Shown: positions 48,423-64,000 of the stretch, in pieces | Position numbering within the stretch: position 1 is the stretch's first letter | Layout: every line of letters begins with the position of its first letter | NCBI GenBank assembly: GCA_041484665.1 | Contig: JBGPIA010000003.1 | Coordinates: 96,001 to 160,000, forward strand | Source: Candidatus Krumholzibacteriia bacterium | GTDB lineage: Bacteria; Krumholzibacteriota; Krumholzibacteriia; JAJRXK01 | Direction: 5' to 3' | Length of the DNA stretch: 64,000 bases | Position numbers and translations under genes: made by a program | Notes under the pieces: generated by a model | Databases searched by the model: none | Seen by the model: only the letters and a program-made list of their open reading frames with translations | What the model was told of the DNA's origin: nothing

Positions 48423-49901
48423 TCAGTACGTCTTGCGCATGCGTGCCGGCAGGATGGAGAGCTGCTCGCGGTACTTGGCCACCGTGCGGCGCGCGATGTT
48501 GAGGCCCTCCAGCTTGAGCAGGTCCACGATCTTCTGGTCGCTGAGCGGACGCCGCTTCTCCTCTCCGTCGATGATCTCGCGGATGCGGGTTTTCGCCGCC
48601 TTCGACGACATGTTCTCGCCGTCGTCGGTGTCGAGGCTGGAGCTGAAGAAGTACTTCAGCTCGAACACGCCGCGCGGCGTCTGCACGTACTTGTTGGTCG
48701 TAACGCGGCTGACGGTGGACTCGTGCATGCCGATACGATTGGCCACCTGCTGCAGCGTGAGCGGCTTGAGCGCCACCGGCCCCTTGTCGAAGAATTCCCG
48801 TTGCTCGTCCACGATGCACTGCATCACCTTCACGATGGTGCGGCGACGCTGCTCGATGGTCTGGATGAGCCACTTGGCGGAATTGAGGCGCCCCATGATG
48901 AACTCGGCCGTGGCCTTGTCGCCCTCCACGCGACTGCGGTTCAGCTCGTCGCGGTAGGCGCGGCTCACGCGCAGGCGCGGGATGTTGCTGTCGTTGAGAT
49001 AGACGATGTACTCGCCGTCGACCTTCTCCACGACCAGGTCGGGCACCACGTACTTGGCGTTCTCGGAGAAGGTGGCCAGGCCAGGTCTCGGGTCGAGGTG
49101 GCCGATCTGCTGGGCGATCTCCTGCACCTCCTGGGTGCTGATCTTGAGCTCCTTGGCGATCTCGTTGAACTTGCGGCTCTTCAGCGAGTCGAAGTGGTCC
49201 CGCACTACCTCCGCCGCCAGGGAGTCGGTCTCCCCGCGCGCGTCCAGTTGCAGCAGCAGCGCCTCCTGGAGGTTGCGCGCGGCGATGCCGGGCGGGTCGA
49301 AACTCTGGATCACCTTCAGGACGGCTTCCACGCGGGCGACGTCCACCTCGAAGGTGCGGGCGACCTCCTCCACGTCGCAGGTGAGGAAGCCATCGGTGTT
49401 CAGCGAGCCGATGACGTACTCGCCGATCTGCAGATCGAGCTCGTCGTCGAGGGTGAGGCGCAGCTGCTTGAGCAGCTGCTGGTAGCCGCTCTCCTGCGCC
49501 ACGGCCACGCGCTCGAACCGCTCGTCGAGCTCCTCGTGCTCCTGCTCGTAGGCCTGGCCGCTGAAGCCATCGTTGAAATAGTCGTCCCAGTCGACGGGGT
49601 CCTCGGGCTCCTGCGGCTCGGGGGCCTCGGCGGCCGCCTCGGGAGTCTGCTCCTCCTCGGCGCCAGCGCCGTTCTCAGACGGCTCGGCCTCCCGCTCCCG
49701 CTCCTGATCCTGATCCGGCTCATCCTCTTCTGACGGATCGATCTCCTCGAGCAGGGGGTTCTGTAGGACCTCCTCCTTGAGGATCTGCTCCAACTCGAGG
49801 GTGGGGACCTGCAGCAGCTTGAGCGCCTGCTGCAACTTGGGCGTCATGACCAGACGCTGCTGCTGGCGCATCTGCGTGGATATGGTCTGCTTCATCTCCA
49901 T
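48423..49901 (-). CDS. rpoN: RNA polymerase sigma-54 factor
   Basis: MTPKLQQALKLLQ, NPLLE, MHESTVSRVT, RpoN box ARRTVAKYRE. Confidence 0.98.
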   Translation of the reverse strand: MEMKQTISTQMRQQQRLVMTPKLQQALKLLQVPTLELEQILKEEVLQNPLLEEIDPSEEDEPDQDQEREREAEPSENGAGAEEEQTPEAAAEAPEPQEPEDPVDWDDYFNDGFSGQAYEQEHEELDERFERVAVAQESGYQQLLKQLRLTLDDELDLQIGEYVIGSLNTDGFLTCDVEEVARTFEVDVARVEAVLKVIQSFDPPGIAARNLQEALLLQLDARGETDSLAAEVVRDHFDSLKSRKFNEIAKELKISTQEVQEIAQQIGHLDPRPGLATFSENAKYVVPDLVVEKVDGEYIVYLNDSNIPRLRVSRAYRDELNRSRVEGDKATAEFIMGRLNSAKWLIQTIEQRRRTIVKVMQCIVDEQREFFDKGPVALKPLTLQQVANRIGMHESTVSRVTTNKYVQTPRGVFELKYFFSSSLDTDDGENMSSKAAKTRIREIIDGEEKRRPLSDQKIVDLLKLEGLNIARRTVAKYREQLSILPARMRKTY

Positions 49902-59320: not shown

Positions 59321-59863
59321 TTACAGCTTGATCAGGCTGAGGAACTCGTGGCGCGTGGCCTGGTTGGCCCGGAAGTCGCCGAGCATCTCACTGGTCAGCG
59401 CCTGGCTGTTCTGCTTTTCCACCCCGCGCATCATCATGCACAGGTGCTGGGCGCGCATCACCACGGCCACGCCCTTGGGGTTGAGGTGCTGCTCCAGGCA
59501 CTGGGCGACCTCGCTGGTCAGGCGCTCCTGCACCTGTAGCCGCCGCGCGAAGACCTCCACGATGCGGGCCAGCTTGCTCAGGCCGATGATCTTGCCATCG
59601 GGGAGGTAGGCTACGTGCGCGCGGCCGAAGAACGGCAGCAGGTGATGCTCGCACAGGCTGAAGAAGTCGATGTCGCGCACGACCACCATCTCGCGATTGT
59701 CCGACTCGAACACCGCGCCGTTGATCTCGTCCTCCAGGTCGGCCCGGTAGCCGGCCGTCAGGAATGCCATCGACTTGGCGACGCGCTCGGGCGTTTTGAG
59801 CAGCCCCTCGCGCTGCGGGTCCTCGCCGAGCTCGCGCAGCATCTGCCGGATGAGCTCCTCCAT
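59321..59863 (-). CDS. folE: GTP cyclohydrolase I
   Basis: [51 protein letters not shown]. Confidence 0.97.
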
Positions 59864-59866
59864 GGA

Positions 59867-60346
59867 TCACCTGCCTGTCGTCTCGAAGCGGTTGTTGCGC
59901 GTCTCCAGCACGTGGAGGCGGACCAGCCGCGCGCCGTCCGGCAGGCGCGGCGCGATCCAGCTCCAGAAGACACGCGCAAGGTTCTCACCGGTGGTCACGA
60001 CGTCGATCACGTCGTTGAGGTTGTAGTGATCGACGCGCATCAGCAGATGCTCGTGGACCAGTGCGTCGAGCTCGGCGCGGCCGATCAGCAGGCCCGTGCG
60101 CGGGTCCGCAGCGCCCTCGAGGGTCACCGCGATCTCGTAGTTGTGGCCGTGCCCGCCCGGCCGGCTGCACTTGCCGAAGACACGGGTATTCTCCGCGTCG
60201 CTAAGCCGCGCGCTCACCAGGCGGTGCGCCGCCTCGAAGCGGTAGACGCGCGTCAGGCGTACCGTCGGCGCGAAGGCAGCCACCGCAGGAGTTGTCATGG
60301 ACGGGCGCGCCGCGGGGACGCCCAACGGCCGCGCTTGCCCGCTCAT
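59867..60346 (-). CDS. 6-pyruvoyltetrahydropterin synthase family protein (copy 2)
   Basis: FEAAHRL, GKCSRPGGHGHNY, DPRTG, VDHYNLN, TGEN, ET. Start is ATG 60346 (ATGA overlap) or 60298. Confidence 0.9.
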   Translation of the reverse strand: MSGQARPLGVPAARPSMTTPAVAAFAPTVRLTRVYRFEAAHRLVSARLSDAENTRVFGKCSRPGGHGHNYEIAVTLEGAADPRTGLLIGRAELDALVHEHLLMRVDHYNLNDVIDVVTTGENLARVFWSWIAPRLPDGARLVRLHVLETRNNRFETTGR

Positions 60347-60780
60347 CCCTCGCCTCCGCCGGCTTCGGCGTAGAGATCCTCGCTCTCCCACACGCGCACG
60401 CGCAGCAGCCGCGCGCCTTGCAGCTGCGCCGCCAACGGACGTAGCTCGGCCATCACATGGAGCGCCAGATTCTCACAGGTGGGAACCACGGTCCTGAAGT
60501 GGGGGACATCGAGGTTGAGGAATGTGTGGTCCAGCGGCTGGACGACGCGCTCCTTGAGCAGGCGATCGAGGTCGGCCAGGTTCATGACCATCCCAGTGAC
60601 CGGATCGACCGCGCCCTCCAGGGTGACGTCTACGCGGTAATTGTGGCCGTGGCCGTGCGGAGAATTGCAGGCGCCGAAGACGCGGCGGTTCTCCTCGTCC
60701 GACAGTGCGGGGGTGTGGTAGCGGTGCGCGGCGGAGAAGCGCACCGTGCGCGTGATGCGGGCGGTCGTGGGGAGGGTCAC
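60343..60780 (-). CDS. 6-pyruvoyltetrahydropterin synthase family protein (copy 1)
   Basis: FSAAHRY, GACNSPHGHGHNY, DPVTGMVMN, LDHTFLN, PTCENLA, WES; GTG start with GAGGAG RBS. Confidence 0.92.
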   Translation of the reverse strand: MTLPTTARITRTVRFSAAHRYHTPALSDEENRRVFGACNSPHGHGHNYRVDVTLEGAVDPVTGMVMNLADLDRLLKERVVQPLDHTFLNLDVPHFRTVVPTCENLALHVMAELRPLAAQLQGARLLRVRVWESEDLYAEAGGGEG

Positions 60781-61009
60781 GCCAACTCCTCGACGGCAGC
60801 AGATCCGTGCGCGCCGGCGCCAGGCAGGAGGCACGGTGATCGGCAGCCGGCGTCCATCCGGTGCGGCGACCACGCGCGGATCCGGTGCCCGGCCTGGGCG
60901 CCGGTGCTTGGGCCGCGCGCGGGACCGCGAAACGATACCGAGGGCGCAGCCGGTCCGCCACGGGGCGCGCGGGGCGCGCGCCGGCGCTGCGCGCGCGGCG
61001 GCCTTGCTC

Positions 61010-61741
61010 TCAAGCCAGACCGATGCCGCCGTCCACGTTGAGCACGGCGCCGGTGGTCCAGCCCGAGCGGTCGCTGGCGAGGAAGAGGATCGCGTCCGCG
61101 ACCTCCTCGGCGCGGCCAACACGGCCCAGCGGGTGCATGGGCGCCATGGCGTCCAGCCGTCCGCGGTCGGAATGGATCGGGGTGTCGACCACGCCCGGCG
61201 CGACCGCGACGACACGGATGCCATCCTTGGCCCACTCCAGCGCCAGGCATTGCGTCAGCGACAAGAGCGCGGCCTTGCTGGCGCTGTAGGCAGCGGTCCC
61301 GGCCACCGGGCGCTGCGCCAGGTTGGTGAGGACGTTCACGATGACGCCGTGGCCCGAACGCTTCAGGTCGATGTAGGCCTCGCGACAGAGCAGGAACGGG
61401 CCGGTCGAGTTGACCGCGAGATGCTCCTGCCATGACTCGAGAGTGCACGCAGCGGCGGGCGCCGGCTGGAACAACCCCGCGTTGTTGACCAGGACGTCGA
61501 GGCCGCCCAGCTGGTCGCGGCAGGCGGCAACGAGTCGCGCGACGTCTTCTTGCTGCGTGATGTCCGCGCCGACGGCGAGTGCGCGCCCACCCGCCTGCTC
61601 GATGTCGGCGGCCATCGCCGCGAGCGGCTCGCGCCGGCGTCCCGCGAGCGCCACGCGGGCGCCTTCGCGCGCAAACGCGCGCGCCGCGGCTGCGCCAACG
61701 CCGCTGCCGGCGCCCGTGATCAATGCAACACGGCCGTGCAA
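61010..61741 (-). CDS. Short-chain dehydrogenase/reductase (classical SDR)
   Basis: TGAGSGVG, NNAG, YSASK, PG.VDT; TTG start with GGAGG RBS. Confidence 0.92.
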   Translation of the reverse strand: MHGRVALITGAGSGVGAAAARAFAREGARVALAGRRREPLAAMAADIEQAGGRALAVGADITQQEDVARLVAACRDQLGGLDVLVNNAGLFQPAPAAACTLESWQEHLAVNSTGPFLLCREAYIDLKRSGHGVIVNVLTNLAQRPVAGTAAYSASKAALLSLTQCLALEWAKDGIRVVAVAPGVVDTPIHSDRGRLDAMAPMHPLGRVGRAEEVADAILFLASDRSGWTTGAVLNVDGGIGLA

Positions 61742-61910
61742 TGTAGGCCTCCATTCCGCCGGAATATGGGGCTCTTGGCGCAGCGGGCTACGCGCCCTCC
61801 ATCAGGCCGGCCCGCGGGACGTCAGCGCCATCGTTCCCCGTCTTGCCCCCGCCTGCCTCGCCATCCCCGGAAAAGACCCCCGCTTGGGGCGGGAGGGGGC
61901 CATTCGGTCG

Positions 61911-61927
61911 CGGGCACGGCCATTGCT
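61911..61927 (+). promoter_or_regulatory. Putative sigma54 promoter
   Basis: CGGGCACGGCCATTGCT: GG(61913-14)-N10-GC(61925-26). Confidence 0.65.
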
Positions 61928-61937
61928 GAATTCGCCC

Positions 61938-62085
61938 TTGCCTACGCCTTGCTTCGCCGGAGGGCGGAGTGAAGCGGTTCTGAGATCGAGCCGTGTCTGC
62001 CACGAAAGTCGTCCCCCCCAGAGATCGGGTGGCAGATGTCGATCGAAGAGCCGTCTGAGCTTCGTCCCTCCGGCAATTTCTTTTC
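61938..62085 (+). ncRNA. Candidate structured small RNA (long rod-like hairpin with C-rich loop and U-rich 3' end)
   Basis: Four nested helices: 61956-69/62060-74, 61974-81/62047-54, 61984-89/62039-44, 61994-62003/62029-38. Several G-U pairs favour the + strand. Followed by AATTTCTTTT and preceded by a sigma54 motif. Confidence 0.55.
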
Positions 62086-62445
62086 GGGCTGAGCGACCGC
62101 CGCGGTCGAAGACCGCTCGAGTCGCAACGGCGCGCCACCGCGGGACGACCGGCCGCTGCTCCGCCCTGGTCCCGTGCGCACCGCACCCAGATCCCTGCTC
62201 TCCCACTATCGAGCCGCGATCGCCGGCTGTCGATCCCCGGGCGGCCATCCGCTGGATCGCCCGCGATTGCCGGCAGCTGGAGACGCGCTGAGGGGGCCGC
62301 GGCGTTTGCCGTCCAACGGACGCTTGCCTTTCTCATCCCGTCAAGCCACCCTGACTGGGTGCGCGGCCCCACGCTGCAATGCAGTCCGCGCCCCCTGCAG
62401 CGCGCGCACCGTCGGCAGGCTCGATGAGACTGCCGCGTTTCTCCC

Positions 62446-63238
62446 ATGACGACCTCGATGCAGCCGCTCAAGAGCTTGGAGCCACGCTCCCCCGGCCGGC
62501 GGGCAAGCGGCGCGGGCCCCGACCTCTCGGTCGTCGTCCCCTGTCTCAATGAAGCCGAATCGCTGCGCGAGCTCGTGCGGCGTCTGGGCCAGACGTTTCC
62601 CGTGGGCGGACCGATCGCGGCGGAGTTCCTGGTGGTCGATGACGGCTCCGCCGACGCGACGCCGCGGCTGTTCCGCGAACTGCAAGCGCGGGAGCCGCGT
62701 CTGATTCCGGTGATCCGCCCACAGCGCGGGGGGCCAGACCGCTGCGCTTTGGTCAGGATTGACCCGGGCGCCTGGCCGCTACATCGCCCAGCTCGACGGT
62801 GACCTGCAGAACGATCCGTCCGATCTCCCGCGCATGCTGGAGTTGGCTCGGCAGGGTCACGACGCCGTCCTGGGCTACCGCGAGCAGCGGTACGACCGGC
62901 CCGCGCGCCGCACCGCCAGCTGGATGGCGAACGCGATCCGCCGCGCCGTACTCCACGATCACATCCGCGACATCGGCTGCTCTACGCGCGTCGTGCGACG
63001 CGAGGCGATGCTCGCGCTGTCTCCCGTCCCCAATCTCAACCGCTATCTGCCGGCCCTGTTGGAGAGATCGGGCTGGCGGATCGTGCAGGTCCGAGCGATC
63101 CACCACCCGCGCCTGTGTGGACGGAGCAAGTACGACAACCTGCGACGCGGGCTGCAGGGGATCGTCGACCTGATCCGCATGGCGCGGCTGGCGGCGCAGC
63201 ATGCCCGGCAGGCGGAATCGAGGACCCATGGTGTTTGA
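62446..63238 (+). pseudogene. GT2 polyprenol-phosphate glycosyltransferase (ArnC/DPM1-like), interrupted by a +1 frameshift
   Basis: First frame: LSVVVPCLNEAES, VVDDGSAD. Second frame: GQTAALWSG, QLDGDLQNDP, DIGCS, R..G.SKY. Removing one G from G6 at 62728-62733 joins them. Confidence 0.8.
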
Positions 63239-63503
63239 CGCTTGGAAGTGGCTGGGCCTGGCGGCCCAGGTGGTGTTCGCCTCCCGCTTCGCCGTGCAGT
63301 GGCTGGTCTCCGAGGCGCGCGGCCAGAGCGTGATCCCAACCTATTTCTGGTGGGCGAGCATCCTGGGTGCGGCGGCGTTGTTGGCCTACGCCATCCACAT
63401 CCACGATCCGGTCTTCATCCTGGGACAGTCGTTCGGGATGCTGGTTTACGTGCGAAACCTCACGCTGCGCCGCCAGCGGACCGACCCCCAGACCACCACA
63501 TGA
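63228..63503 (+). CDS. Lipid A biosynthesis N-terminal (LAB_N) domain small membrane protein
   Basis: LGLAAQVVFASRFAVQW..SE....SVIP.YFW..S, YAI...DPVFILGQ, YVRNL. Confidence 0.9.
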   Translation: MVFDAWKWLGLAAQVVFASRFAVQWLVSEARGQSVIPTYFWWASILGAAALLAYAIHIHDPVFILGQSFGMLVYVRNLTLRRQRTDPQTTT

Positions 63504-64000
63504 GCGACCGCAGACTGCGCGGCCCGCTGGCGCTGGCCGCCGCCGGCCTCGCGCTCTGGGTAGCGGGGCTGGGCGCCTATCCCCTGCTCGAGAGCACCGA
63601 GGGGCGCTATGCATCGATCGTGGCGGACATGCTTCGCCGCGGTGACTGGCTCGTGCCGCGCTTCGATGGGCTGCTGCACTTCGACAAAGCCGCCGCTGGC
63701 GTACTGGGGCGGCGCTCTGGCGCTGCGACTGCTGGGCCACAGCGAGCTCGCGCTGCGCGTGCCTGCCACGCTCGCGTGGCTGCTGTCCGCGTGGCTGGTG
63801 TTCCGCCTGGGGCTCGCCGCGACGCTTGACCGCCGCCGCGCGACGTGGGCGGCCGTGTTCGCCAGCTTCGCTCCGCTGGCGGTGGTGCAGGCGCGCATGC
63901 TGAGCAGCGATGTCTTCCTCTGGCCGGCGACCCTGTGCGTCTACCTCGGCGTGGTCGACGTGAGTCGAAGCGCGTGGGGGCGCGCTGCGCTCACGGGCGT
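63500..64000 (+). pseudogene. ArnT/PMT-family glycosyltransferase (partial), with a +1 frameshift
   Basis: TEGRYASIVADM..RGDWLVP..DG..HFDK. Removing one A at 63686-63688 restores KPPLAYW...ELALRVP; runs off the right edge. Confidence 0.8.

Follow-up and report, generated by a model that had tools for sequence, protein, structure and literature searches.

CrcZ is a stand-alone sRNA driven by sigma54, Qrr and CrcZ both need Hfq, and the promoters of GlmY and GlmZ reportedly include sigma54 types. Pxr reportedly has three stem-loops. In RepG (HPnc5490) of Helicobacter pylori, a C-rich apical loop on the stem ending the RNA pairs with a homopolymeric run of G within a 5′ UTR (PMC8295292). The reports on sX13 of Xanthomonas (PMC3771888) and on 6C RNA of Actinobacteria (PMC6486639) describe C-rich loops, G-rich motifs near start codons, Hfq-free activity and high-GC hosts; in these RNAs every one of the two or three short hairpins bears a C-rich loop, and the targets of sX13 include pilH.

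We analyzed a 64,000-nt stretch of DNA (the window) from a member of Candidatus Krumholzibacteriota (the host genome) and found that, on comparative sequence evidence, it carries a genuine small RNA gene of sigma54 type that is uncatalogued and occurs throughout the host's family. The RNA resembles RepG in its C-rich apical loop and differs from it in forming a single 108–119-nt rod behind a sigma54 box, with a fixed C6-8 run, no Rfam or sequence match and no phase-variable target seen. Compared with sX13 and 6C, which gave no Rfam match to it, the RNA has one loop, a long rod and a sigma54 promoter. The −24/−12 promoter and the stand-alone gene are shared with GlmY, Qrr, CrcZ and Pxr, whereas Rfam shows no match to them in sequence or structure; moreover Hfq, which Qrr and CrcZ require, gave no match in the host genome (93.65% complete; the control search matched in 5 of 14 genomes). 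Like bacterial small SRP (4.5S) and 6S RNA, the molecule is a long, imperfectly paired rod in which the 5′ end pairs with the 3′ end, but it lacks the GNRA-capped domain IV motif and the large central bubble. No description of it was found in the literature searched, although supplements of ncRNA motif catalogues may hold it unnamed, and the same searches yielded no regulatory RNA for the phylum.

Structure, promoter and distribution of the rod RNA

The predicted RNA (61938..62084, plus strand) is about 147 nt long, its ends being placed from the promoter and the U-tail, and the predicted lengths of 13 orthologues are 123–147 nt. The plus strand of the locus folds in prediction into a 119-nt rod. 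The basal stem joins a 5′ arm at 61956..61969, with a sequence-conserved CGCCGG core, to a 3′ arm at 62060..62074, and 85.2% of its alignment cells are paired. The arms at 61974-81 and 62047-54 and those at 61984-89 and 62039-44 are paired in the predicted fold, and the inner stem pairs 61994..62003 with 62029–62038. The apical loop of 25 nt (62004-28) contains TCCCCCCC at 62012-19 and the near-invariant motif AGUCGU-C7-AGAGA (62007..62024), whose exposed C-run is the proposed seed. The U-rich tail AATTTCTTTT (62075-84) directly follows the basal stem and is the probable 3′ end; it was not listed by a simple terminator scan, and 10 of the 13 orthologues have 5–9 T among the first 12 nt past the stem (the other three have 3–4). 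All motifs, stem arms and the loop described in an initial annotation of this DNA were recovered at these positions. The position and length of its 25-nt loop stood, but the loop is not wholly open, as a short inner stem (GUC/GAU plus UC/GA) is predicted in the host genome; the C-run nevertheless stays open, with a probability of being unpaired of 0.93–0.96 at C62014–62019.

The fold of 61938–62085 had a free energy of −70.9 kcal/mol (z −4.91), and none of 200 shuffled sequences was equally stable, whereas the minus strand gave −57 kcal/mol (z −2.03; 6 of 200 shuffles). The MFE of the plus strand was the lower in 13/13 orthologues and its z-score in 12/13. These values agree with the assignment to the plus strand in the initial annotation. 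Its ORF-free gap was also borne out: no gene was placed at 61742–62758 (by a caller that also missed the first piece of a split glycosyltransferase), and the orthologues have no start codon or frame in common, two of them (G004 and G009) lacking any start codon 5′ of the loop. The RNA is single-copy in the 5.45-Mb genome by BLAST and by the covariance model R3 (next best 15 bits), which disposes of dispersed copies and of a REP/MITE-type repeat.

In the 13-sequence alignment, 85.9% of the cells pair, compared with 72.2 ± 1.3 for shuffled sequences (0/500 as high) and 39–46% for slid-alignment controls. Double changes were found in 18 of the 34 stem pairs (1/500 shuffles); the consensus structure was derived from the same sequences on which it was tested, and related sequences are not independent. 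The inner stem is free to vary in sequence, with double changes in 8 of 11 pairs and 92.5% of cells paired. Alignment of the middle stem is poorer, with 73% of cells paired, and the basal stem keeps its sequence as well as its pairing, with three invariant pairs. The loop AGUCGU-C6-8-A(G)AGA is near-invariant, with columns invariant in 14 sequences, and its C-run is 6–8 nt long across the orthologues. The mean probability that the C-run is unpaired is 0.89–0.97 in 10/13 sequences and 0.20–0.45 in three; G005, G007 and L134 carry a variant RNA with a weak U-tail and a C-run predicted to be mostly paired.

The sigma54 −24/−12 promoter, GGCA-N6-TTGC, lies at 61912..61927 on the plus strand (GG at 61913-14, GC at 61925-26), with a predicted +1 near 61938. 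The same box stands 16–29 nt before the rod in 10/10 family genomes, all of which were found without using it, against a background of 0.016 per kb. The window also encodes rpoN (48423..49901, minus strand; TIGR02395 above cut-off, and PF04552), and of 35 matches to PF00158 (sigma54 activators) in the host genome, 26 have an E-value below 1e-59. Of 18 strict sigma54 motifs in this genome, 13 lie clear of any predicted gene, though genes cover 84% of it. These intergenic boxes comprise one in the window region of 52200 (C3:148200, minus strand) and 12 others; some precede a lipid A acyltransferase-like gene or a pilT-like gene, and one, at C17:104917 (minus strand), lacks a gene on its own strand within 675 nt and might be the promoter of a further small RNA.

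A candidate activator (bEBP) site, TGCA-N9-TGCA, occurs at 61724..61740 (no strand assigned; −214 to −198) and extends over the opening codons of the SDR gene, which is divergent. The full motif is present in 5/13 loci, and at least one TGCA occurs at −135 to −225 in 13/13. The half-site is also kept in three loci without the SDR gene and in L121, where tblastn detected no SDR. The E. coli NtrC box TGCACCAnnnTGGTGCA has the same spacing (PMC8743547). We infer that TGCA-N9-TGCA may be the sigma54 activator site, coding constraint being a rival explanation in the SDR-bearing loci. A PilR site common to the pilA and RNA promoters was rejected, as only the general TGCA core is common to both, and this core cannot name the activator.

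No Rfam 15 family matched the rod at E up to 10 in window positions 60500–63500, the sole match being an IRES (9.6 bits, E 3.2) outside it, and none matched the RNA in 11 orthologue loci (7 + 4). The SRP RNA (RF00169) of the host genome lies at C2:672293-672391 (79.4 bits). For 6S RNA, which is about 180 nt long with a central bubble, RF00013 gave no match in the host genome and matched above cut-off at other loci in 8/9 relatives; a profile of the relatives' 6S RNAs located the host 6S RNA at C2:212061-212231 (minus strand, E 2.7e-22). Both identities are thus rejected, and the initial annotation had rightly noted that the rod has neither the SRP domain IV motif nor a 6S-type bubble. The tmRNA lies on C23, so the rod is not tmRNA. 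Bacterial Y RNAs have a Ro-binding stem and Ro60/Rsr in the genome, usually adjacent; they were rejected on the ground that the host genome gave no TROVE (Ro60/Rsr) match and that the neighbors are SDR/PTPS genes and purN. CsrB/RsmZ-type decoys carry many GGA motifs in loops, whereas 10/13 of the RNAs have no unpaired GGA and the others at most two, though CsrA is present.

Orthologues were found in all 10 genomes of the host's family. BLAST gave clear matches (E 1.4e-5 or better) in 6/9 relatives, an exact search with the loop 13-mer raised the total to 8/9, and model R1, built from nine sequences, added the ninth, G007, at 42.8 bits from outside its training set. The 10 family genomes scored 91–165 bits with model R3 (all in training), whose top score in the phylum's 133 other genomes was 20 bits. 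Model R1 gave one weak match, of 26.8 bits and without a sigma54 box, in 141 genomes of other families; thus no homologue above 27 bits was found outside the family in 141 (R1) or 133 (R3) genomes under strict filters, which lose weak matches. The RNA was thus detected, at the sensitivity of these models, in a single family. The loop 13-mer also occurs in 16/198 genomes of other families, with the rod in none of those loci, and 0/20 purN-adjacent loci from other families have the sigma54 box or the rod. A box-plus-loop pattern gave 20 matches in a species-level genome collection, of which seven score 42.8–139.8 bits; these repeat sequences already found, five titled Candidatus Krumholzibacteriota or Krumholzibacteriia and two titled uncultured bacterium. 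In metagenomes, 7 of 28 such matches score 52–134 bits and add L117, L118/L126, L121 and L134, and viral contigs gave 0 matches. Orthologues, covariation, the conserved −24/−12 box, the lack of an Rfam match and the single copy strongly support the proposal of the initial annotation that this is an undescribed sigma54-dependent plus-strand RNA, as predicted from the genomes.

Candidate targets of the apical loop

We give a probability of about 55% to the reading that the RNA is a stand-alone, trans-acting, Hfq-independent sRNA, similar to RepG, sX13 and 6C, that pairs with G-run ribosome-binding sites. A sigma54 activator, bound about 140–220 bp upstream, would stimulate transcription from the −24/−12 box, and the transcript of ~125–147 nt would fold into one long stable rod with a C6-8 run open at the tip. 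The tip would need no Hfq to pair with G5-7 runs at ribosome-binding sites, and this pairing would block translation initiation. The best conserved candidate target is a sensor kinase, pilS-like, in the type IV pilus operon, and its targeting would create a feedback loop on a sigma54 two-component system. This reading is supported by the concentration of sequence conservation in the exposed loop while the stems covary, by the conserved C-run, exposed in 10/13 sequences, by the convergent purN that leaves the gene stand-alone in related loci, and by the lack of an Hfq match in the host genome, given that sX13 and 6C work in this manner without Hfq. Against it, conservation of the basal stem and of the sequences flanking the C-run (AGUCGU, AGA) goes beyond the needs of pairing with pilS.

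The host genome was searched for targets using our own gene calls (3972 genes). The pilS-like kinase, which lies between a pilC-like gene and a sigma54 activator, is called pilS-like by its gene order; NCBIfam gave only sub-cut-off kinase matches. A G6-7 run stands 5–9 nt before its GTG in 8/10 RNA carriers, compared with a G6 at the SD in 0/19 evaluable pilC-linked orthologues of non-carriers; among these 19 loci, one has a G5 at the SD and two have a G6 elsewhere in the search window. Seven of the 26 non-carrier loci were dropped, six because they were not pilC-linked or their N-terminus was unmapped and one because of a mis-placed start. The background of G6 in start regions of the host genome is 83/3965. 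The two carriers without the G-run, G005 and G007, both have the variant RNA with a mostly paired C-run, and they count as one event, not two. In most of the phylum a sigma54 box precedes the downstream pilA-like gene, so a feedback loop is conceivable. The SD of the pilR-like gene is also kept within the family (GAAAGGA in nine relatives, AAAGGA in the host genome). A conserved G6 SD thus needs no sRNA, because family-specific SDs are normal here and the conserved G6 SD of a large secreted protein also stands in homologues of a non-carrier.

The second candidate is the start region of a gene for a 463-aa secreted Cys/Thr-repeat protein (C8:139001-140392, minus strand), which was missed by the caller and added by hand. 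Its predicted pairing with the loop comprises 18 pairs with one bulge, the best complement among 11,923 G5+ sites in the host genome, and covers the SD 13 nt before the ATG. Flank-shuffled loops reached 18 pairs anywhere in 5/184 cases and in a start region in 0/184, by a pair-count measure picked after the site was seen; by duplex energy the site is ordinary, 63/148 shuffled loops being as good. The gene was found in 1/10 family genomes. The protein ends in an SWGxVK-type tail and has no Pfam or NCBIfam match itself; some of its homologues, of which only 18 were found, carry the insect antifreeze repeat PF02420, and a loose sigma54-like box lies about 60 nt upstream of the gene.

Other candidates were rejected. 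A secreted protein with a T9SS tail and an AACGATGGGGG(G)A SD (G000, the host genome; G002, G003 and G005) was screened at 107 loci from 239 pattern matches, 150 of them listed; the non-carrier G030 has G6 in 3/3 homologues, and the carriers G001 and G008 have GGAGGG. The host locus C15:57150-60687 (plus strand) belongs to a family of secreted proteins of ~1,080–1,130 aa in which a FlgD/T9SS-type tail is the sole Pfam domain; the family has about seven copies in this genome, where about 150 proteins have the same tail, and one orthologue group keeps a ~270-nt leader in G000, G002, G003 and G005 with no Rfam match at gathering score. The G7 run of the hpf leader is kept in 0/5 relatives, and the G5-6 of pilN sits in the last pilM codons and also occurs in non-carriers. 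TCT+G5 is not enriched in start regions (4/182, 2.2% vs 1.6%). No strong duplex was formed with the partial 16S rRNA, whose GGGGAYGAC site reads GTGAGGATGAC in the host genome, and tmRNA, SRP and 47 tRNAs gave at best −21.6 kcal/mol with broken helices.

Protein- and RNA-binding alternatives

A protein-binding RNA, serving as a decoy, mimic or scaffold for which GlmY, CrcZ, 6S and Y RNAs are models, is the main rival, though less likely than the pairing model; in it the rod of nearly fixed length would offer its basal CGCCGG stem and its apical motif to one or two proteins. It has to be considered because the rod length and the basal-stem sequence are conserved: the rod is held at 108–119 nt while its middle changes freely, and three basal pairs are invariant. 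The variation of the C-run from 6 to 8 nt, which a long register-specific duplex would tolerate poorly, and the want of a target kept in all 10 genomes point the same way, as do GlmY and GlmZ, whose promoters are said to include sigma54 types. However, the locus suggests no partner, neither Ro60/TROVE nor Hfq was matched in the host genome, CsrA would meet no unpaired GGA in 10/13 RNAs, and the 6S and SRP genes lie elsewhere. We regard as unlikely the further proposal that the RNA, instead of being an antisense regulator, belongs to an undescribed ribonucleoprotein. In this proposal sigma54 induces a rod of fixed length, and specific proteins bind its two conserved ends; the rod might titrate a poly(C)-binding factor, for example, or act as a ruler that keeps two partners apart. 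If true, it would add a functional class to those of 6S, SRP and Y RNAs.

It is improbable that the RNA is a sponge or partner of another RNA, pairing loop to loop with a G-rich sRNA or with the leader of the divergent folate/pterin operon. In G001 and G008, 14 nt of a second structured RNA-like element are perfectly complementary to the loop, and several loci have G-rich patches upstream, on the divergent strand. The complement is, however, broken in the other three of the five copies, the element was not found in the host genome, pairing with the divergent leader fails to surpass local controls in 11/13 loci (fraction of controls as good above 0.05) and differs in position, and 16S, tmRNA, SRP and tRNAs give no strong duplex.

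The second element is itself uncatalogued, with no Rfam match, and occurs in 5/5 genomes of genus g2 (L068–L072: G008:C49:18452-18632, minus; G001:C3:49717-49872, plus; G009:C8:191782, minus; G004:C4:63861, minus; G006:C9:812912, plus). It has a TATACT −10 box, a 5′ hairpin, a closing stem GCCGATGCGG/CCGCATCGGC and the conserved complementary motifs GCGACT and AGTCGC, a possible pseudoknot.

Genomic setting and significance

The divergent upstream genes are SDR (absent in some loci), two PTPS/QueD-like genes and folE; SDR and the two PTPS/QueD-like genes upstream of folE (window 59321–61741, minus strand) make up a pterin cluster specific to this family. In two genomes from a different family folE adjoins purN, with neither the RNA nor the SDR/PTPS genes between them. 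In the 15/15 related loci tested, some of which are near-duplicates, purN converges on the 3′ end of the rod; the rod therefore appears to be stand-alone. The rod ends within about 30–100 nt of the purN stop in several relatives, as it would if there were no independent RNA and the element were a DNA-level repeat or just the terminator of the convergent purN transcript. We consider this very improbable, given that the element is single-copy, that the plus strand folds better in 13/13 (MFE) and 12/13 (z) orthologues, that a conserved sigma54 box points into the rod, that the rod persists where other genes part it from purN (the host genome, L121 and L118), and that a terminator has no need of an invariant 18-nt loop.

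The suggestion of the initial annotation that the rod is a cis-acting leader or attenuator of the downstream lipid A modification genes (glycosyltransferase/LAB_N/ArnT-like), which in the host genome follow on the same strand 360 nt past the rod, is largely refuted by the comparison of loci, as the glycosyltransferase follows in 0/15 related loci, where purN converges instead, and as purN stands 3.3 kb further on in the host genome, which marks the 3.3-kb cassette between them as a local insertion. The glycosyltransferase (window 62446–63238) is split over two frames near 62760–62800, and the ArnT-like gene (window 63501–64000) also begins in broken frames; these may be either assembly errors or decay of an insertion that the relatives lack here.

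The rod RNA thus represents a well-supported RNA family, absent from Rfam, in an uncultured phylum. As a trans-acting sRNA, it would join a sigma54 promoter to a design with a C-rich loop and no Hfq, of which the examples described to date come from Helicobacter, Xanthomonas and Actinobacteria. The gene, the promoter, the seed and the two candidate targets are short enough for work in a laboratory host. Should the pilS-like kinase indeed be a target, the RNA would exert feedback on the PilS/PilR pilus switch.
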